Shown: piece by piece, positions 9,912 to 53,413 of the stretch
How the letters are laid out: each line of letters opens with the position of its first letter
How positions within the stretch are numbered: the first letter of the stretch is position 1
Assembly: GCA_964551605.1 (NCBI GenBank)
Contig: CAZKCV010000002.1
Location: 8,500 to 72,499, forward strand
DNA length: 64,000 nucleotides
Direction: 5' to 3'
Source: an uncultured Gammaproteobacteria bacterium
GTDB taxonomy: Bacteria; Patescibacteriota; Microgenomatia; Daviesbacterales; UBA10151
Made by a program: the position numbers and the translations under genes
Notes under the pieces: generated by a model
Databases searched by the model: none
What the model saw: the letters and a program-made list of their open reading frames with translations, nothing else
Told to the model about the DNA's origin: nothing

Positions 9912-9959
9912 TTGACATAATCCCCTATTTATTATATGATATCCCCCTAGGAGGGATAT
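9912..9959 (+). promoter_or_regulatory. sigma70-like promoter (TTGACA-17-TATGAT) plus inverted repeat ATATCCC-N7-GGGATAT overlapping -10/RBS/start of csoR; putative CsoR operator
   Basis: TTGACA at 9912-9917, TATGAT at 9935-9940. Palindrome 9939-9959 with G/C-tract arms resembles known CsoR operators (GC-rich pseudo-palindromes). Confidence 0.5.
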
Positions 9960-10230
9960 GGCATACAGACCTAAAGATACAGAAGAGAGGATTTTACACC
10001 GGTTAAAAATAGCCAAAGGACACTTACAAAAAGTGATCCAAATGGTTGAATCCGGCCATTATTGTATTGATGTAATCCATCAATCCCAGGCTGTCCAACG
10101 GGCTTTGCAGGAAGCTGACGGGTTGGTTTTGGAAAACCATCTCCAAACTTGCGTGGTAGAACATATAAAAAATGGAGAAGCAGATACCTCAATTAAAGAA
10201 ATAATGAATGTGTTTAAGAAAAGCAATTAA
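9958..10230 (+). CDS. csoR: copper-sensing transcriptional repressor, CsoR/RcnR family
   Basis: 90 aa. Clear similarity to B. subtilis CsoR (RLKxxxGxLxxVxxMVE...YCIDVxxQxxAVQ...HLxxC...FKK), including the Cys/His/Cys metal-ligand positions. Confidence 0.75.
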   Translation: MAYRPKDTEERILHRLKIAKGHLQKVIQMVESGHYCIDVIHQSQAVQRALQEADGLVLENHLQTCVVEHIKNGEADTSIKEIMNVFKKSN

Positions 10231-10238
10231 CCTGTCTT

Positions 10239-10739
10239 ATGGGTGAAAAGAAGCTTATTATTATATTCGTTGCAATAACAGCCTTAATTCTGGGTGGCGG
10301 CATTTTTGTTCTAAGCAGTTCCTCTCCTCCTGCTAAAATTACTGCTTCCCAAAATGCCAAAGCAGAAGTTTCTGAGAGAACTTTTGATTGGGGTAATATT
10401 CCTTACAGTGGGGAGAAGGCAACTAAAACTTTCACTATTAAAAATAGCGGGAGTGATGCGTTGAAATTAAGTGGGATAAAAACCTCTTGTACTTGTACCA
10501 AGGCTCAAATTTTAATAGAAGGGAAAACCAGCCCTTATTTTAGTATGCATTCTACATCCGGTTGGGTGGGTGAAATACCACCCGGTAAAGAGGCAGAGCT
10601 GCTGGTTATTTTTGACCAGGCTTTTCATGGCCCTAGCGGGGTGGGACCGATTGAAAGGTTGATTTCTCTTAACACAAATGATGTCCAAAACCCCACAATA
10701 GAGTTTTCTTTAAAAGGAGTGGTGGTTAAAGATAAATAA
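10239..10739 (+). CDS. membrane-anchored hypothetical protein (DUF1573-like Ig-fold?)
   Basis: N-terminal TM, then beta-rich domain with CTCT motif. Located in the copper gene cluster. Confidence 0.45.
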   Translation: MGEKKLIIIFVAITALILGGGIFVLSSSSPPAKITASQNAKAEVSERTFDWGNIPYSGEKATKTFTIKNSGSDALKLSGIKTSCTCTKAQILIEGKTSPYFSMHSTSGWVGEIPPGKEAELLVIFDQAFHGPSGVGPIERLISLNTNDVQNPTIEFSLKGVVVKDK

Positions 10740-10740
10740 T

Positions 10741-11676
10741 ATGAAAAAAACAAAAATACAGGGGATTTTGAATAAAGCAGTGCCTTTGTGGATGGTGATT
10801 GTGATTGTCTTAAACTCCACCATGGTAATGGGGTTTGCCCAGTATTATTTTTTAAGGCAGGAGATTCAAAGGAACCTTCAGGAACTGGCTAAAACCACCC
10901 AAAGTCCCGAGGAGTTAGTTCAGGTTTTAAAACAGGAAGTGTTGCCGCAGGCAGGATATAAAACCTCCTTAAAATGGAAGGATTTAGGGAAGCGATTAGT
11001 GGGGGCGGGAGCAATTGATAAGAAAAAGTATGAAGAAATTTTTGTTTCAGAAGCAGACGGGCAGGATCATATGAAATATCTGGATGGCAGTTGGGAAGAA
11101 AACATGGTCATTAATGAAACAAACTCCCGCTTTATGGTTAATACACTTTGGGCCCTGGGACTTGCTAATAAAAGCAAAGTATTAGATGAAGGTCAAATGA
11201 AAACAGGTGAGACCCCGACTGAGAATTTTGCTTCTACCGGAGGCTGGACTCTGGGGGTAAAGCCGGTTATGGAAATCTATTCTTCAGCCGAGATTATTCC
11301 GCTGACACCAGAGCAGCAGGAATTGGTAAAAAAGATTGCCGAAAATGTTTTCCGGCCTTGTTGCGGCAACTCAACAGCTTTCCCGGACTGTAACCACGGT
11401 ATGGCCGCCTTGGGTTATATTGAGTGGGCTGTTTATAATGGTCTGCCTGAAAACCAGATTTATAAAGATTTATTGGCCTTTAATACTTTTTGGTTCCCGC
11501 AAAATTATGTTGAGATGGCAGTTTTCTTTGATAAAGCCGGCACTAAGTGGAAAGATGTAAATCCTCAAATGGCTTTAAGCCGGGATTATTCTTCCGCCCA
11601 GGGTGCAGCTAAGATTAAGCAATCGATCCAAAATGTACCGGGATTACAAAACCAGGGAGGAGGCTGTGGTGTCTAA
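10741..11676 (+). CDS. membrane-anchored Cys-rich hypothetical protein
   Basis: 311 aa, N-terminal TM. Cys cluster RPCCGNSTAFPDCNHG and C-terminal GGGCGV. No known family recognised. Confidence 0.45.
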   Translation: MKKTKIQGILNKAVPLWMVIVIVLNSTMVMGFAQYYFLRQEIQRNLQELAKTTQSPEELVQVLKQEVLPQAGYKTSLKWKDLGKRLVGAGAIDKKKYEEIFVSEADGQDHMKYLDGSWEENMVINETNSRFMVNTLWALGLANKSKVLDEGQMKTGETPTENFASTGGWTLGVKPVMEIYSSAEIIPLTPEQQELVKKIAENVFRPCCGNSTAFPDCNHGMAALGYIEWAVYNGLPENQIYKDLLAFNTFWFPQNYVEMAVFFDKAGTKWKDVNPQMALSRDYSSAQGAAKIKQSIQNVPGLQNQGGGCGV

Positions 11677-12519
11677 ATGGGAATGGAAAATGTCTTGTTT
11701 CAAATTTCTTTGATAGCAGCTTTTGTGGCCGGAATGGTGGCCCTGTTTGCCCCTTGTTGCATCACGTTTTTGTTACCAGCCTATTTAGGCAGTGTATTCA
11801 AAGAAAAAGAGAAGGTTATTCTAATGACCTTGGTATTTGGGGCCGGGATCTTTGTCGTGCTTTTGCCGGCTGTTTTAGGGGTTGCTTTGGTTTCAAAATT
11901 TCTCTTCCGCTACCATGATCTGATTTATATAGTAGGTGGTGTAATTATGCTGGCAGTAGCAGTCACCACCTTTTTGGGAATTAAGCTGCCGATGCCTAAT
12001 TTAAGCGGTGTTAATTCCAGCGGCAAAACCGATGTTGTTTCAATTTTTACCTTGGGGATTGTGTCCGGTATTACCAGTGCCTGTTGCGCCCCGGTCTTAA
12101 TCGGCATTATGACTTTGACCCTTTTATCCCCCACTTTCTTTGGGGCCTTGCTGGTAGGCGGGATGTATGTGTTGGGGATGGTAGTACCACTGCTTTTAAT
12201 TGCACTTTTTCTCTCCGATAAGATGCCTAAGTTTATCTTTTTAAGAAAGCCGATTTTAGATTTGAAAATCTTTGGTAAAAGCTATGCGGTGGTAATGAGT
12301 AATTTGATTGCAGCTGTTGTTTTCTTGATTACCGGGATACTGGCTTTAGTCTTGACAATGACAGGGAAGCTATCTGCGGAGAATATGGATGCATTTACTA
12401 AAACCATTACTAATGCCTTAGGCAGTGTTAATGGGATGTTGGGGAATAATATTTTGATTAATGTATTGTTTGTGGGGGCATTAGCAGCTTTTATTTTTTG
12501 GGTGTCAAAAAAAGTGTAG
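11677..12519 (+). CDS. CcdA/DsbD-family thiol-disulfide transmembrane electron transporter-like protein
   Basis: TM1 motif FAPCCITFLLPAYLG closely matches the CcdA SPCVLPLYPAFL signature. Second Cys pair in a later TM (ACCAPVLIG). Confidence 0.6.
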   Translation: MGMENVLFQISLIAAFVAGMVALFAPCCITFLLPAYLGSVFKEKEKVILMTLVFGAGIFVVLLPAVLGVALVSKFLFRYHDLIYIVGGVIMLAVAVTTFLGIKLPMPNLSGVNSSGKTDVVSIFTLGIVSGITSACCAPVLIGIMTLTLLSPTFFGALLVGGMYVLGMVVPLLLIALFLSDKMPKFIFLRKPILDLKIFGKSYAVVMSNLIAAVVFLITGILALVLTMTGKLSAENMDAFTKTITNALGSVNGMLGNNILINVLFVGALAAFIFWVSKKV

Positions 12520-12543
12520 TATGGATTATGAGGGGGTGAGAAT

Positions 12544-12888
12544 ATGGCAATAAAAAATAATGGTAATAGTCCGGTCGCTTATCTAATAATAGCAGTATTG
12601 GTTGGTGGTTTAATTGGCTTTTTTGTTGGTCAAAATAACAGACCATTTTCAGCAGGTTACATGAACCAAACTGCCTCTATGATGCGTGATAACGGTTCCA
12701 ATATGATGCAAATGGGAAAGATGATGATGAACTCCGGTCAGATGATGCAGCAAAAGGGTCAAACATACGATGATCAGGAAATGATGCAGAACGGTAAGGA
12801 GTTGGAAGAGAATGGCTCGATGATGCAAAACAAGGGTGATGGCATGATGGAACGAGGTAACGGCATGATGCAAATGATGGGACAATAA
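12544..12888 (+). CDS. membrane-anchored methionine-rich repeat protein (putative Cu(I)-binding)
   Basis: N-terminal TM, then ~70 aa of MMQ-x-G type Met repeats (MMQMGKMMMNSGQMMQQKG...GMMERGNGMMQMMGQ). Sits between the CcdA-like gene and copA. Confidence 0.5.
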   Translation: MAIKNNGNSPVAYLIIAVLVGGLIGFFVGQNNRPFSAGYMNQTASMMRDNGSNMMQMGKMMMNSGQMMQQKGQTYDDQEMMQNGKELEENGSMMQNKGDGMMERGNGMMQMMGQ

Positions 12889-12906
12889 TCGAGAAAGGAG
12901 GTAAAA

Positions 12907-13170
12907 GTGTTAAACGCAAAAGTTTTTGCGAATGCAGCTGCTGCGGTAATGGCTATTTGGGTAGTTGTTTGTGCTCTATTGGCATACACAGCACCGGATT
13001 TATTATTTGCAGTTTCAGCGTCCTGGACGCATACCATTAATCTGGAAGCGGTCAGGTCAACCTTTAACCCAAATCCGGTTTCATTAATTTTGGGATTTGT
13101 AAGTGCAGTAGGATTAACTTGGGTGACAACATACGGGGTAATTTGGTTATATAACCGTTGGGTAAAGTAA
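12907..13170 (+). CDS. small 2-TM membrane protein, hypothetical
   Basis: 87 aa with two hydrophobic helices and its own RBS (AGGAGG upstream). Confidence 0.35.
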   Translation: MLNAKVFANAAAAVMAIWVVVCALLAYTAPDLLFAVSASWTHTINLEAVRSTFNPNPVSLILGFVSAVGLTWVTTYGVIWLYNRWVK

Positions 13171-13187
13171 TTGACTGAAAGGAGATT

Positions 13188-13550
13188 ATGTTAAGTATAG
13201 ATGAAATAGTAGTGGGTTTTTTCGGCCTTTTTGGGATAGTTTTTACCTTTTGGTTTTTTCTGATGAAAAAGGAAAAGGAAGTACAAACCCAAGGAGAAGT
13301 AGATATAACAGTGTCCGGCGGCTATTCACCGGAAGTGATTTCCGTGGCCCGGGGTAAAACTACGAAAATTAATTTTATCAGAACTGATCCGACTGATTGT
13401 CTGGAGGAGGTAGTGCTGTCTGATTTTAAGATCAGAAAACAGTTGCCGCTTAATAAAAAAGTCAGCATAGAAATTACACCGCAGAAAGCCGGGGAATTTG
13501 GGTACGCTTGTGGTATGAATATGTACCACGGAAAGATTGTGGTTAGGTGA
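13188..13550 (+). CDS. membrane-anchored cupredoxin-like small copper-binding protein
   Basis: N-terminal TM, then ~90-aa beta domain with Cys/Met/His ligands (TDC...[10 protein letters not shown]). Paralogous to the C-terminal domain of the 15747..16778 product. Confidence 0.5.
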
Positions 13551-15745
13551 TGGAAACGAAGATATTTCAAATTAAAGGAATGCACTGTGCTTCGTGCATC
13601 CGGGTGATTGAGAATTCCATTAAGAAGATCCCGGGGGTTAGCGAAGCTCTGATCAGTTTAGTAACCGAAAAAGCTACCGTGACTTTTGATTCATCTGCAG
13701 TTAAAGATGAACAAATTACCTCTGCTGTATCAAAAGTGGGTTATAAAGCCTTTCTGGAAGAAGAGGTAAGGTCGGAGGATGAAGAGAAAAAAGAAAAACA
13801 AAAAGAGCTTTTCAGCCTAAAAAAGAAAGCATTTATTTCTCTTTTTTTGGCAGCCTTAATTGTCTGGGGCAGCTTTCCTTTTTTGGAACAATTTGCTCCC
13901 CCGCTATTAAAAAACTTCTGGTTCCAGTTGATTTTGGCTTTACCGGTCCAATTCTGGGCCGGATTTATGTTTTATAAGGCTACACTTCCGGCTCTCCGGC
14001 ATCGGACAGCAAATATGGATACTTTAATTGCCATTGGTACTTCAGCTGCCTTTGGTTATTCCCTGGTAGCCACTGCTTTCCCGCAAGTAATCGCAAGCAC
14101 CGGGATTGAGCCGATGCCTTATTTTGATGTGTCAGCGGTAATTATTGGCTTGATTTTGCTGGGCAGGTATTTCGAAGCCAAAGCTAAAGCCGGCACCTCG
14201 GAAGCGATAAAAAAACTAATCGGTTTGCAAGCTAAAACCGCCCGGGTACTGTTGAATGGTAAAGAGGTGGATGTGCCGATTGATCAGGTAGTGATCGGGA
14301 ATGTTATCCGGGTGAGACCGGGAGAAAAAATCCCGGTTGACGGCAAAGTTAAAGAGGGGCAATCAGCGGTGGATGAATCAATGATTTCCGGGGAAAGTAT
14401 TCCGGTGGAGAAGCAAAAAGGAGATTTGGTGATTGGCGGCACCATTAATAAAACCGGGAGTTTTACTTATGAGGCTACTAAAGTCGGCAGTGATACCATG
14501 TTGGCTCAGATTATCAAGCTGGTCCAGGAAGCTCAGGCCAGTAAGGCGCCAATTCAGCGGCTGGTTGATTTAATTTCTTCTTATTTTGTGCCAATTGTCA
14601 TAATGCTGGCCATAGCTACTTTTACTATCTGGTATATTTTTGGTCCGAATCCGGCTTTCCTTTTTGCCCTTTTAAATTCAGTGGCGGTTTTAATTATTGC
14701 CTGTCCTTGTGCCATGGGACTGGCTACTCCGACTGCCATCATGGTAGGTGTAGGTAAGGGGGCAGAGCAGGGTATTTTAATTAGAAATGCCGAAGGCTTA
14801 GAGATCGCTCATAAGATAAATACTGTAATTTTTGATAAGACCGGAACATTAACAAAAGGTAAACCGGAAGTGACGGATGTTGTCGGTAATGTATTGCAAC
14901 TGGCTGCATCACTTGAGAAGGGATCTGAGCATTCTTTGGCAGAAGCCATCGTTAAAAAAGCTGAAGAAGATAAAGTTACCTTAAAAAAAGTAGATAAGTT
15001 TAAAGCTGTACCCGGGCATGGTGTGGAAGGCCGGATTGATGGAGAGTTCGTAGTTTTAGGAAACCGCAGGTTAATGAATAGGGAAAAAATCAAAATTAAT
15101 GAAAAAGAGGTAGAAAAGCTGGAGAGTGAAGGTAAAACCGTGATGATGCTTGGAGTGGCCGGGAAACTAGCGGGATTGATTGCGGTGGCAGATACTGTCA
15201 AGGAAACTTCTAAAAGTGCAATTAAGACACTGTCTCAAATGGGGATAGAGACGGTCATGATAACCGGAGATAACCAGCGGACTGCCCAGGCTATAGCTAA
15301 GCAAGTAGGCATTAAGAGGGTGTTAGCAGAAGTCCTGCCGGATCAAAAAGAAGCAGAAGTAAAAAAGATTCAGGCAGAGGGTAAGGTGGTAGCTATGGTA
15401 GGGGATGGGATTAATGATGCCCCGGCCCTGGCTGCCTCAAACATAGGTATTGCCATGGGGTCCGGGACTGATGTGGCAATGGAGGCTGCAGGCATTACAT
15501 TAGTAAGTAAGGATTTAAATGCTGTTGCAAGTGCTATTACCCTTTCCAAGAAAACCATGAGGACAATAAAACTTAACCTTTTCTGGGCTTTTGGGTATAA
15601 TATAACTTTGATTCCAGTTGCCATGGGAGTGCTATATCCTTTCTCCGGGATTTTATTAAATCCCATTTTAGCTTCAGCCGCCATGGCAATGAGTTCTATA
15701 TCAGTTGTTAGCAACTCTTTGTTGCTAAAGAAAGTGAAAATATAA
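13547..15745 (+). CDS. copA: copper-translocating P1B-type ATPase
   Basis: N-terminal HMA domain ([12 protein letters not shown]), CPC motif ([11 protein letters not shown]), [15 protein letters not shown]. 732 aa. Confidence 0.9.
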
Positions 15746-15746
15746 T

Positions 15747-16778
15747 ATGGATCTTTGGATAGTATTTTTAACCGGTTTAACAGTTGGAGGAGTTAGTTGC
15801 ATGGCGGTGCAAGGGGGGTTACTGGCATCCACCATTGCAGCCAGGGAAGAAGAAGATATCCGGGCAGGTGTTAATCATAAGCATACAGTTTGGCCTACCT
15901 TGGCTTTTTTAGCTACCAAGTTTATTGCCTATATAATCTTAGGATTCATTCTGGGTAGTTTTGGCTCGGCCCTGGCTCTATCTGATGGTGCCAGAATTGT
16001 GACGCAGATGCTGGCTGCCTTGTACATGATTTTGGTAGCGCTGAATCTTTTAAATGTCCATCCGATCTTTAGGTATGTGATTATTCAGCCGCCTCGGTTT
16101 TTAACCCGAATGGTCAGGAATCAATCCAAAAGTAAAGATTTATTTGCCCCGGCCTTTTTAGGAGCCATGACGGTTTTTATCCCCTGTGGGACTACTCTAG
16201 CTATGGAGGCTTTTGCCATCTCTTCCGGCAGCCCTTTTTTAGGTGCTGCCATCATGGGGGTATTCGTCCTGGGGACTGCCCCGTTATTTTTCGGGCTGGG
16301 GTTCTTAACCACCATTTTAGGTGATGCATTCAGAACCAAGTTTTTAAAAATAGCCGGGGTAGTTGTACTGTATTTAGGGATTACCTCTTTAAACGGAGCT
16401 TTGGTGGTAGCCGGCTCCCCCATTAATCTACAAACCATTGCTGATAGCTCCCCTATTCAGATAGATTTAGACGGAGGAGGAGAAGAGCAAACAGGGCTTG
16501 AAGTAGTTGGTGGCGTGCAGGAAGTAGATGTTCAGGTTTTGCCCGGCGGCTACAGTCCCGATTATGTTCAGCTTCAAGTTGGTGTGCCTGTTCGCATGAC
16601 TTTAACTGCCGGTAGCAGAATAGGCTGTGCCTCTCAGTTTAGGATTCCCAGTTTAGGGATAGCCAGGAATTTGGGACCAAATGAAGTAACTACTATTGAA
16701 TTTACTCCTGAAAAGAAGGGCAAAATAATCGGCACCTGCTCAATGGGAATGTATTACATGATTATGGAGGTAGTTTAG
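15747..16778 (+). CDS. polytopic membrane protein (Cys in TM1/TM4, DsbD_2/CcdA-like?) fused to C-terminal cupredoxin-like domain
   Basis: TM Cys motifs GGVSCMAVQGG and FIPCGTT. C-terminal 90 aa align with the 13188 product (GGYSP...C...CSMGMYYM vs GGYSP...C...CGMNMYHG). Confidence 0.5.
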   Translation: MDLWIVFLTGLTVGGVSCMAVQGGLLASTIAAREEEDIRAGVNHKHTVWPTLAFLATKFIAYIILGFILGSFGSALALSDGARIVTQMLAALYMILVALNLLNVHPIFRYVIIQPPRFLTRMVRNQSKSKDLFAPAFLGAMTVFIPCGTTLAMEAFAISSGSPFLGAAIMGVFVLGTAPLFFGLGFLTTILGDAFRTKFLKIAGVVVLYLGITSLNGALVVAGSPINLQTIADSSPIQIDLDGGGEEQTGLEVVGGVQEVDVQVLPGGYSPDYVQLQVGVPVRMTLTAGSRIGCASQFRIPSLGIARNLGPNEVTTIEFTPEKKGKIIGTCSMGMYYMIMEVV

Positions 16779-16993
16779 TGAAAAAGAAATTTAAGATTAC
16801 CGGCATGCACTGTTCTTCCTGTGCCATGACTATAGATATGGATTTGGAAGACCTGGAAGGGGTAAATAAGTCCCAAACCAGTTATGCCAAAGCAGAAACA
16901 GAAGTAGAGTTTGATCAGGGTAAGATCACTGATGATCTGATTCTCCAAACAATCAAAAAATCCGGCTACGGTGCATCTCCTGTTGATTTTTAA
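16778..16993 (+). CDS. copZ: copper chaperone CopZ (HMA domain)
   Basis: 71 aa with GMHCSSC metal-binding motif. Confidence 0.8.
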   Translation: MKKKFKITGMHCSSCAMTIDMDLEDLEGVNKSQTSYAKAETEVEFDQGKITDDLILQTIKKSGYGASPVDF

Positions 16994-19672: not shown

Positions 19673-20614
19673 ATGGATGCACTGCCCGAAATTTTTGACA
19701 CCATCATTATTGGCGGAGGAGCTTCAGGGACTTCAGCTGCAATTTATACTGTCAGGAAAAACCTAAAAGTTTTAATGCTGACTAAAGACCTGGGTGGTCA
19801 GGCAGCTTTGTCCGGAGATGTAGAAAATTACCCGGGCTACAGTATGATTTCCGGTGAAGAGCTGGCCAGAAAATTTAGAGCAGAGCTTTTAAACTTTGAA
19901 GGCCGGGGACTTTGGGTTAAAGACGGGGTGGAAGTTACTGATATATCCGGACAAGTGCCGAATTTTTTAGTTAAGACTTCTAAGGGAGAAGAATTTCACT
20001 CAAAAACCGTAATTATAGCTTCCGGTAGAACCCCCCGGATGCTCGGGATTTCCGGGGAAAAAGAACTTTTAGGCAGGGGTGTCAGCACTTGTGCCACTAA
20101 TAACTCCCCTTTTTTCAAAGATAAAGATGTGGCTGTGGTAGGTGGCGGAAACTGTGCTTTGGATGCGGCATTTTCCCTTATCAAAGTAGCCCGTTCCGTT
20201 ACCATTATCAATATTACAGATTCCCTAAAAGGTGATGAAGTGTTATTGAAGAATGTTACTTCTTCTGAAAAGGTAAAGGTTTTAAATGATCATGAAGCAG
20301 TGGAAGTTTTAGGTGAAGCATCCGTTGGAGGCATTAAAGTCAGAAGTAAATTAACTCAAAAGGAAGAGGTGCTGCCGGTATCCGGGGTATTTATTGAGAT
20401 TGGTTGGATTCCCTCAGCCCCCTTTGATAAGTTAACTGAAAAAAACGAAAAAGGGGAAATTAAAGTTGATCAATTCGGTGCAAGTTCCTTACCCGGTATT
20501 TTTGCCTGCGGAGATATTAATGATCAGGCCGGTGAACAGATTGTAATTGCTGCCGGAGAAGGTGCAAAAACCGGTTTAAAAGTGGCAGAATATATCTCCA
20601 AGCTTCCGGTTTAA
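19673..20614 (+). CDS. FAD-dependent pyridine nucleotide-disulfide oxidoreductase (thioredoxin-reductase-like, no canonical CxxC)
   Basis: IIIGGGASGTSAA, GGGNCALDAA, CGDIND motifs. The TrxB CATC redox motif is degenerate (CATN). Confidence 0.65.
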   Translation: MDALPEIFDTIIIGGGASGTSAAIYTVRKNLKVLMLTKDLGGQAALSGDVENYPGYSMISGEELARKFRAELLNFEGRGLWVKDGVEVTDISGQVPNFLVKTSKGEEFHSKTVIIASGRTPRMLGISGEKELLGRGVSTCATNNSPFFKDKDVAVVGGGNCALDAAFSLIKVARSVTIINITDSLKGDEVLLKNVTSSEKVKVLNDHEAVEVLGEASVGGIKVRSKLTQKEEVLPVSGVFIEIGWIPSAPFDKLTEKNEKGEIKVDQFGASSLPGIFACGDINDQAGEQIVIAAGEGAKTGLKVAEYISKLPV

Positions 20615-40252: not shown

Positions 40253-40295
40253 AATTTAAGCGTAACAAAAGTGGAATTTTGAATCAACAAGCTAG

Positions 40296-40369
40296 TAGCG
40301 CGTACGGGAGTTGAACCCGTGATTTTCGGAATGAGAATCCGACGTCCTAGGCCACTAGACGAACGCGCC
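40296..40369 (-). tRNA. tRNA-Glu (anticodon CUC)
   Basis: Reverse complement folds as a cloverleaf: acceptor GGCGCGU/ACGCGCU, anticodon stem UCGGA/UCCGA with loop UUCUCAU (U33, A37), T-arm ACGGG-TTCAACT-CCCGT, discriminator A. CCA not encoded. Confidence 0.7.
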
Positions 40370-53236: not shown

Positions 53237-53413
53237 CCCCGCTTAAAAGCGAGGCCAGTTATCCAGGTAGTTCCAAATTGCTTTGAAACTCGGCGGCTCA
53301 CCGTCCTTTGTCCCTGGTAACTTGTTGTAGATGTATACTATCATAGACGCTCCCTAAATGCAAATTTAAGCATAAAAATGATAAAATAACCTCTGAAGGC
53401 TATTAAAATAATT

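Follow-up and report, generated by a model that had tools for sequence, protein, structure and literature searches.

The best described proteins of the kind discussed in this article come from Streptococcus pneumoniae, where CupA, a membrane-anchored Cu(I) chaperone, holds a binuclear Cu(I) cluster formed by two cysteines and two methionines (PMC7558416, PMC5646241, PMC9470648). The cluster comprises a bis-thiolate high-affinity site S1 (10^-17.9 M) and a methionine-rich low-affinity site S2 (10^-14.8 M) (PMC9470648). CupA also reduces Cu(II) in vitro via C74 and C111, and the source that re-reduces these cysteines is reported as unknown (PMC5646241). In reviews up to 2026, CupA is regarded as particular to S. 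pneumoniae and a small number of other streptococci. We analysed a copper locus in a 64,000-nucleotide stretch of a Candidatus Daviesbacteria genome (assembly GCA_964551605.1, contig CAZKCV010000002.1, positions 8,500 to 72,499), which we refer to as the window and in which all coordinates are counted from the first nucleotide. The locus encodes two CupA-type domains, one in a free membrane-anchored protein and the other fused to the C-terminus of a membrane protein with six transmembrane (TM) helices, and the gene of this fusion protein is followed directly by copZ, which encodes a soluble Cu(I) chaperone. To judge from its domains and its gene neighbours, the module formed around the fusion protein probably passes copper or reducing equivalents from one side of the membrane to the other. 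The fusion joins two known modules in an arrangement for which we found no description: our search for literature on a fusion of a cupredoxin or CupA domain with DsbD, or on the function of such a protein, found none, papers linking TauE/SafE proteins with copper and CopZ were limited to an unrelated plasmid survey, and the DsbD_2-related literature gave one relevant paper, on the CsoR meta-regulon (PMC4938975). The genes at the centre of the analysis are the following.

13188..13550, plus strand: free CupA-type protein, 120 aa (PF13473; PDB 2MRY/4F2E)
13547..15745, plus strand: copA, Cu(I)-exporting P1B-type ATPase (TIGR01511, E 1.6e-191)
15747..16412, plus strand: fusion protein (343 aa, 15747-16778), six-TM DsbD_2 core, residues 1-222 (PF13386)
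16413..16778, plus strand: fusion protein, acidic linker (residues 223-256) and CupA-type domain (residues 257-343)
16778..16993, plus strand: copZ, soluble HMA Cu(I) chaperone with the motif GMHCSSC (PF00403 and CopZ NCBIfam models)

The free protein is the one that most resembles the pneumococcal system. It has the same cupredoxin-like fold as CupA (PDB 4F2E, 2MRY) and shares with it a predicted single N-terminal anchor, a predicted location on the cytoplasmic side of the membrane, and a gene position directly upstream of copA. The surroundings are different: the host belongs to the Candidate Phyla Radiation (CPR), the regulator is CsoR and not CopY, the cognate CopA has an HMA domain in place of a cupredoxin domain, and a CopZ is encoded as well. 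Moreover, a second copy of the domain is tethered here to a six-TM protein and predicted to lie outside the cytoplasm, that is, with the topology inverted with respect to CupA. The N-terminal cupredoxin domain of the pneumococcal CopA (PDB 4F2F) has the same fold and ligand motif and is likewise fused to a membrane transporter; in that case, however, the partner is an ATPase and the domain is cytoplasmic, whereas the domain in the window is C-terminal, attached to a core of the DsbD superfamily and predicted to be external. The CopA encoded in the window contains one ferredoxin-like N-terminal HMA domain (PF00403, residues 7-67) and a CPC motif visible in its translation, and the Pfam scan found no PF13473 cupredoxin domain in it. 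The genes are packed closely, the free gene being apparently coupled in translation to copA, whose start its stop codon overlaps by 4 nt, the fusion gene beginning 1 nt after the copA stop, and the copZ start overlapping the stop codon of the fusion gene.

Both domains are assigned to the CupA family on the grounds of sequence and predicted fold. An earlier sequence-only reading of this DNA had described two open reading frames (ORFs) beginning at 13188 and 15747 and flanking copA, and had proposed that their products carry paralogous cupredoxin-like domains; the ORFs, both on the plus strand, and their arrangement around copA (13547-15745) are as described, and the paralogy is borne out by BLASTP (30% identity over 79 aa, E 8e-12). 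The family and fold comparisons that had been suggested as checks point the same way: PF13473 (Cupredoxin_1) matches the free protein with E 1.6e-24 and residues 258-339 of the fusion with E 7e-9, and the modelled domains, each a cupredoxin-like beta-barrel, can be superposed on PDB 4F2E. No other relatives come nearly as close as CupA and the metal-binding domain of the pneumococcal CopA; CuA domains, nitrosocyanin and AcoP are among the more distant structural matches, and classical cupredoxins appear solely at this level of fold similarity. The match between the free protein and CupA (PDB 2MRY/4F2E) has E 4.8e-24 and extends over 88 aa at 43% identity, and the four ligands all fall on one another in it. 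Specifically, C71, C108, M110 and M112 of the free protein (codons at 13398-13400, 13509-13511, 13515-13517 and 13521-13523) and C294, C331, M333 and M335 of the fusion (16626-16628, 16737-16739, 16743-16745 and 16749-16751) correspond to C74, C111, M113 and M115 of CupA. By homology, the free protein is a CupA-family chaperone; the phylum in which it occurs is unexpected, and the CopA with which it is paired is non-canonical. Copper binding by both domains, which had also been anticipated, is supported by homology.

Conservation of the ligands among homologs is high. The pattern Cys...C-x-M-x-M is invariant in 101 close homologs of the fused domain, present in 120 out of 120 free homologs, and found in 78/80 membrane-proximal domains of DsbD_2-containing representatives clustered at 50% identity, while distal domains keep it less often. 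The last figure is the unbiased one; the pattern also occurs in 80/80 of the loci that we fetched for analysis of gene linkage, but this count is circular because the search pattern contained CxMGM. In the fused domain the residues invariant among the 101 close homologs are Q258, Y269, P271, C294, P301, G325, C331, M333, G334 and M335. The sequence-only reading had extended the signature to C-x-M-x-M-Y/H. Its Cys...C-x-M-x-M part is real, but the final position is kept only in the free family, where 'YH' follows CxMxM in 113/120 homologs, and is variable in the fusion. The proposal that the domains hold a mononuclear copper site with a His or Tyr ligand is not supported, because the conserved residues align with those of the binuclear cluster of CupA and the fused domain has no invariant His in the 101 close homologs; the His-Cys-His-Met set of a type-1 site is absent from it.

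The membrane part of the fusion had been described as DsbD-like with cysteines in TM helices, and this description is accurate. PF13386 (DsbD_2) covers residues 6-212 of the fusion with E 3e-30, or E 1e-30 when the membrane part is searched alone. In a profile comparison with hhalign, the membrane-only profile matches E. coli DsbD with 88% probability (E 2.8e-6 over 166 columns), which amounts to remote homology, and similarity to the solved structure of CcdA is not close (PDB 5VKV appears only at E 8.6). Some homologs of the fusion carry precomputed PF02683 matches. InterPro naming may connect PF13386 with the nickel permease UreH, but we give this connection no weight. In the DsbD alignment, C18 (15798-15800, in TM1) is placed opposite the Cys of 'FTPCVLP' and C147 (16185-16187, in a 'PCG' motif of TM4) opposite the Cys of 'SPCTTAP', which we take to be the two redox-active membrane cysteines of DsbD. 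C18 and C147 are kept in 52/52 aligned sequences, namely 51 diverse representatives and the protein of the window. By sequence, the six-TM core belongs to the DsbD superfamily. The public gene call for exactly this protein is 325 aa long, starting at Met19 and omitting the invariant Cys18, and many homologs of 325-327 aa are shortened in the same way (P0001 and P0024 are examples). The longer ORF is backed by the invariant residues 1-18 in homologs. A Shine-Dalgarno-like GGAGG, encoded by the conserved residues 'VGG', stands just before the internal ATG (within 15747-15800) and is probably what draws gene callers to the wrong start.

By prediction, the CupA-type domains of the two paralogs lie on opposite faces of the membrane. 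In the free protein, a single N-terminal TM anchor (approximately residues 7-26) is followed by KKEKE and the cupredoxin-like domain, and in 118 homologs of the free family lysine and arginine are found 413 times after the anchor helix and 118 times before it. In view of this enrichment the free domain is predicted to face the cytoplasm, like that of CupA. The opposite orientation is predicted for the fused domain on three independent grounds. First, the mean number of lysines and arginines in the core is 11.3 in loops 1-2, 3-4 and 5-6 and 1.8 in the N-terminus, loops 2-3 and 4-5 and the linker after TM6, a pattern that holds in all of the 52 aligned sequences. Second, in relatives that carry an HMA domain at the N-terminus, without a signal peptide, an extra hydrophobic helix (TM0) lies between the HMA domain and the DsbD_2 core in 29/29 cases; the HMA domain should then be cytoplasmic, and with TM0 the core should start and end outside, as in DsbD and CcdA. 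Third, among stand-alone relatives, those with a domain nearer to the fused type begin in most cases with a Sec or lipoprotein signal (signal-like orientation in 16 versus 2), while those nearer to the free CupA have a CupA-type anchor. The predicted topology of the core is N-out/C-out, and we consider it likely, with good confidence for a prediction, that the fused CupA-type domain lies outside the cytoplasm. Several of the stand-alone relatives (P0316, P0325, P0334, P0335, P0380, P0385, P0386 and P0388) have Sec signals or lipoboxes and keep C...CxMxM. It follows that secreted CupA-type copper proteins exist in many bacteria, contrary to the view of CupA as a streptococcal peculiarity.

The fused domain has a large number of homologs and these occur in various architectures. 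A search with the C-terminal domain retrieved 2025 clusters (50% identity) with E below 1e-3. Among the best 150 of the 2025 clusters there were 42 entries with a single domain, 32 with DsbD_2 and one domain, 25 with two domains, 25 with HMA, DsbD_2 and two domains, 19 with DsbD_2 and two domains, 3 with HMA, DsbD_2 and one domain, 1 with HMA, DsbD_2 and three domains, 1 with three domains alone, and 2 CopA fusions; some of the short entries are probably fragments. In this set, 29 of the 80 DsbD_2-containing representatives have the HMA domain fused on the cytoplasmic side. The larger relatives (P0242, P0243, P0252, P0318, P0322 and others) consist of HMA, TM0, DsbD_2 and two or three CupA-like domains and reach 774 aa, and their distal CupA-like domain often has no copper ligands. 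In one HMA-fused subgroup TM1 carries the motif H-C-x-x-M-C-G-G and TM4 the motif M-P-C-G-P-L-Q-A-M-Q. A homolog search with the membrane-only profile returned almost only close Daviesbacteria relatives and did not sample the other architectures.

In data with one genome per species, the fusion is encoded in at least 569 genomes, whose hosts include many Microgenomates lineages, Anaerolineae and other Chloroflexota, Dormibacterota and Actinomycetota. Homologs 64-100% identical to the protein of the window are named Candidatus Daviesbacteria or Microgenomates. Many metagenome-assembled genomes (MAGs) of the 'binchicken' series are titled 'uncultured Gammaproteobacteria' or 'Pseudomonadales' (L001, L004, L005 and others), while their loci have 45-66% protein identity to those of Daviesbacteria and Microgenomates and are syntenic with them; these titles look like placeholder or wrong taxonomy, and we left them out of the taxonomic account. 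A different domain combination built around DsbD_2 is known from gut Firmicutes, where COG2836 proteins (HMA, DsbD_2 and DUF2318) contain the same membrane family, with HMA on the cytoplasmic side, but have DUF2318 and not a CupA-type domain at the C-terminus. Those proteins were inferred bioinformatically to be regulated by CsoR and loosely grouped with 'chaperone-like' proteins, with no function or topology proposed (PMC4938975).

Gene linkage was counted in 80 fetched fusion loci with flanks of up to 7 kb on each side. CopZ, rather than CopA, is the conserved partner of the fusion: copZ lies directly downstream of the fusion gene in 73/80 loci, with gaps mostly between -4 and +20 nt, and it does so in 8 of the 9 loci that have no copA in the fetched flanks. 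The copA gene is directly upstream in 50/80 loci and anywhere in the fetched flanks in 71/80, csoR is present in 34/80, and a free CupA gene in only 19/80. Since copZ is nearly always adjacent, the free CupA gene is usually absent and copA is not always near, we conclude that the conserved unit consists of the DsbD_2-CupA fusion and CopZ. By its domains, this gene pair corresponds to the single HMA-TM0-DsbD_2-Cup polypeptides of other lineages. A CopA with a Cup domain was seen in only 2/80 related loci. In loci L066 and L070 (Dormibacterota and Chloroflexi MAGs), CopA is 922-1022 aa long and has CupA-like N-terminal domains, like the pneumococcal CopA, and its gene is oriented divergently from that of the DsbD_2-Cup fusion.

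Full-length homologs are also found on plasmids of cultured strains of Deinococcus, Tsukamurella, Mycolicibacterium and Streptomyces, where all are annotated 'sulfite exporter TauE/SafE family protein'; Mycolicibacterium aubagnense and Streptomyces mirabilis are among the cultured carriers. On the Tsukamurella tyrosinosolvens plasmid (locus L082, NZ_LR134469.1, 43250-54293) the gene pair lies between a P-type ATPase gene and merA with a multicopper oxidase gene, and CcdA and TlpA genes are nearby. On a plasmid of Deinococcus sp. QL22 (locus L081) the pair adjoins a two-component system, merB and a MerR-family regulator. These mixed metal islands raise the possibility of a role for the pair with Hg(II) or Ag(I).

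In the window, the four genes listed above are the last of a set of ten, all on the plus strand and tightly packed from 9958 to 16993, with gaps of -4 to +24 nt between ORF coordinates. The order is csoR, DUF1573, a 311-aa protein, a 280-aa CcdA-like membrane protein, a methionine-rich 114-aa protein, DUF5676, the free CupA-type protein, copA, the fusion and copZ, and the set reads, from its gene content, as a CsoR-controlled copper-efflux operon of a Candidatus Daviesbacteria (CPR) genome. The remaining features of the operon are these.

9912-9940, plus strand: promoter-like site TTGACA-17-TATGAT, the best promoter match in the region (11/12), just before csoR
9939-9959, plus strand: inverted repeat ATATCCC-N7-GGGATAT, read from the sequence, overlapping the ribosome-binding site and the csoR start codon
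9958..10230, plus strand: csoR, copper-sensing repressor, first gene of the operon (PF02583, E 2.6e-23)
10239-10739, plus strand: DUF1573 protein with an N-terminal anchor, conserved cysteines and an 'SCTC' motif, accessory (family scan)
10741-11676, plus strand: 311-aa protein with an N-terminal anchor, conserved cysteines and the motif 'CCGNSTAFPDCNHG', accessory, without a family match
11677..12519, plus strand: divergent CcdA-type thiol:disulfide membrane transporter, 280 aa, with C27C28 and C136C137 (ortholog profile)
12544-12888, plus strand: methionine-rich 114-aa protein with one N-terminal TM helix, accessory, without a family match
12907-13170, plus strand: DUF5676 two-TM protein, accessory (family scan)

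The repeat at 9939-9959 has the general form of known CsoR sites, and a separate search also picked up a partial palindrome at this position; it may be regarded as a candidate, autoregulatory CsoR operator. The tail of the 114-aa protein contains runs of M-x-x-M and MMQ, which suggest that it may bind Cu(I), and a counterpart of this protein is found in only 1/80 related loci. The 280-aa protein has no Pfam or NCBIfam match as a single sequence, but a profile of 11 orthologs matches CcdA (PDB 5VKV) with E 2.8e-15 and E. coli DsbD with 96.5% probability (hhalign, E 1e-9). Its invariant cysteine doublets lie in 'FAPCCITFLLP' and 'SACCAPVL', and a double Cys at both active positions is unusual for CcdA. 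The idea that this protein and the DsbD_2 core of the fusion are close paralogs was rejected, as profile comparison gave a probability of 20% and single-sequence comparison 1.3%. The DUF1573 gene ('SCTC'), the gene of the 311-aa protein ('RPCCGNSTAFPDCNHGM' motif) and the CcdA-like gene recur together as a conserved set of three in 8-10 of the 80 copper loci (about 10%), among them L001, L004, L006, L015, L053, L069 and L079. The set may comprise a CcdA and, as its clients, two cysteine-rich proteins that lie outside the cytoplasm.

Taken together, the predicted location of the two paralogs on opposite sides of the membrane, the identity of the fusion's conserved partner as CopZ and not CopA, and the presence of a separate CcdA homolog go beyond the sequence-only reading, whose phrase 'copper hand-off or redox coupling at the membrane' spans both of the leading mechanisms. 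We tentatively favour the view, to which we would assign a little less than an even chance, that the fusion and CopZ form a transmembrane thiolate relay for Cu(I), in which the metal passes from CopZ via C18/C147 to the outer CupA-type site. Under this proposal, CopZ loaded with Cu(I) would dock at the cytoplasmic face of the fusion and Cu(I) would move by ligand exchange to the C18/C147 pair, which would be accessible alternately from the two sides like the cysteines of DsbD and CcdA; the ion would then be released to the outer C294/C331/M333/M335 site, which would buffer Cu(I) at the cell surface beside the export driven by CopA. The outer domain may also take Cu(I) as it leaves CopA, and the free protein, by extension from the pneumococcal CupA, would capture Cu(I) at the inner face by its C71/C108 and M110/M112 sites and pass it to CopA. 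In Gram-negative bacteria the periplasmic protein CusF accepts Cu(I) from CopA (PMC5552934), and the outer CupA-type domain may have an analogous function, although CusF is unrelated in fold and ligands and is soluble, not tethered to a cysteine-bearing membrane core.

One reason to favour metal as the relayed species is that the conserved cytoplasmic partner of the membrane core is an HMA metallochaperone, either fused (29/80 representatives) or encoded by the adjacent copZ (73/80 loci). In addition, HMA-fused relatives have the metal-type motif H-C-x-x-M-C-G-G in TM1, the operon already contains a genuine CcdA whereas the DsbD_2 core is far more distant from CcdA, and the context is that of copper efflux, with CsoR, CopA and CopZ in the same operon. 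The domain identities, the conservation of ligands and the linkage of the genes are observed directly, while the direction of flow and the relayed species are inferred from them. A broader claim is that one branch of the DsbD superfamily has turned from carrying electrons to carrying metal, such that a C18/C147-type pair takes Cu(I) from an HMA chaperone to an outer CupA-type site; this we would sooner doubt than accept.

Several considerations weigh against a Cu(I) relay. The only characterised relatives of the core, DsbD and CcdA, move electrons and not metals, and their cysteines stand at exactly the same aligned positions as the pair in the fusion; nothing is apparent that would couple energy to the outward movement of the cation; the linkage to copZ could arise in part from shared membership in cop operons; and in one cultured example the gene pair adjoins merA, which would fit inward transport. 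The topology of the fusion is a prediction, and the structure model is of moderate quality (predicted local distance difference test, pLDDT, 73.7), with moderate confidence in the membrane part.

With electron-carrying relatives and aligned cysteines, the conservative reading of the homology is that the fusion conducts electrons. A cytoplasmic thiol donor would reduce C18/C147 and these would reduce C294/C331, keeping the outer site reduced, and competent to bind Cu(I), in surroundings that are oxidising and rich in copper, or converting Cu(II) to Cu(I) at the surface, while Cu(I) would be supplied by CopA. The fusion shares with DsbD and CcdA, and with the ScsB-ScsC-CueP system, a remotely homologous core with aligned cysteines in TM1 and TM4 (some fusion homologs having PF02683), a predicted N-out/C-out orientation, and an external cysteine-bearing client domain, and copA stands directly upstream in 50 of the 80 loci. 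ScsB of Salmonella reportedly reduces the cysteines of the periplasmic copper chaperone CueP, and the fusion would be a one-polypeptide counterpart of this pair. The ScsB precedent is mentioned in PMC7785015, and a source of electrons would also suit the reduction of Cu(II) by CupA through C74/C111, given that the source of their re-reduction is the one reported as unknown (PMC5646241). What electron transfer leaves unexplained is the presence of an HMA domain on the cytoplasmic face in 29/80 representatives, where thioredoxin or nothing would be expected, the adjacency of copZ in loci without copA, and the additional His, Met and Cys in TM1 of the HMA-fused relatives. Besides, the operon already has a genuine CcdA, and Pfam and NCBIfam scans found no thioredoxin-fold gene in it, although a general thioredoxin could be encoded elsewhere. 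On this balance we regard electron transfer as the strongest competitor but somewhat unlikely.

Transport in the opposite direction is improbable. In the mercuric-ion relay, MerP lies outside the membrane, the cysteines within it belong to MerT, and MerA contributes an N-terminal HMA domain on the inside. The fusion and its partner would follow the same logic as MerT/MerP/NmerA, the metal-binding domain being external, the cysteine pair in the membrane and the HMA domain internal; the resemblance is one of architecture. By analogy, the outer domain would take up Cu(I), Ag(I) or Hg(II), which would pass through the cysteine pair to CopZ or HMA and on to CopA, MerA or cuproenzymes, and the plasmid loci of T. 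tyrosinosolvens, with the pair beside merA, and of Deinococcus sp. QL22, with the pair near merB and a MerR-family regulator, are consistent with such a role. However, no NCBIfam MerT model matches the fusion and no sequence relationship to MerT was found in these models, the outer domain is cupredoxin-like and not HMA, and the copper-efflux context makes the direction probably outward: CsoR, a repressor that allows its target genes to be expressed at high copper, is encoded in the same locus here and in 34/80 loci, the fusion gene usually lies directly behind that of the exporter, and import followed by ATP-driven export would be futile. The adjacency of merA was observed in one of two cultured loci inspected, on a metal-resistance plasmid, and may be a coincidence.

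Two further explanations can be set aside. The possibility that the domains are type-1-like cupredoxins which move electrons through a mononuclear Cys/Met/His-or-Tyr centre is very improbable: it agrees with the cupredoxin-like fold and with the distant matches to CuA domains, nitrosocyanin and AcoP, but the nearest relatives bind binuclear Cu(I) and act as chaperones (PMC7558416, PMC9470648), the Y/H position is variable, and the operon is one of copper efflux and not respiration. A blue-copper electron carrier is effectively excluded, the fused domain having no invariant His. That the membrane part is a TauE/SafE exporter of sulfite or organosulfonates with an incidental C-terminal domain is scarcely credible and likewise effectively excluded, since, in spite of the name that NCBI gives to many homologs and of the broad transporter superfamily that DsbD_2 and TauE presumably share as a Pfam clan, a Pfam scan of the membrane part, read up to E 10, gives PF13386 alone and no TauE model, its gene has copA, copZ and csoR and not sulfur-metabolism genes as neighbours, the CupA-type ligands are kept in 78/80 representatives, and the membrane cysteines align with DsbD.

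Elsewhere in the window, a thioredoxin-reductase-like flavoprotein encoded at 19673-20614 (plus strand) has the redox motif 'CATNNS' where C-A-T-C is expected, the second active-site Cys being seemingly missing. Two RNA features are unrelated to the copper finding: an Rfam match to the DUF3800-II sRNA at 53253-53328 (minus strand; 60 bits against a gathering score of 43.2) and a tRNA-Glu(CTC) at 40295-40369 (minus strand).

The CupA-type domain with its complete set of ligands constitutes a large family of 2025 clusters and not a streptococcal peculiarity. It occurs in four settings, namely as an anchored protein facing the cytoplasm, as a secreted protein or lipoprotein, in fusions with CopA, and in fusions with a DsbD-like core. 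The fusion and the CopZ that almost always accompanies it make up a conserved module, misannotated and so far uncharacterised, which is present in at least 569 species-level genomes. It is a candidate answer to the question of how bacteria with neither a periplasm nor CusF handle Cu(I) on the outer side of the membrane, and to the question of where CupA-type cysteines obtain reducing equivalents (PMC5646241). As homologs are encoded by cultured Deinococcus, Tsukamurella, Mycolicibacterium and Streptomyces, these hypotheses are open to direct genetics and biochemistry. If the core does carry Cu(I), it would represent a new transport mechanism within the DsbD superfamily and an ATP-independent class of Cu(I) export or surface buffering, one that is common to many Patescibacteria, Chloroflexota, Actinomycetota and Firmicutes and at present goes by the name of a sulfite exporter; the CupA fold would then be in wide use for handling copper, inside the membrane as well as outside it.

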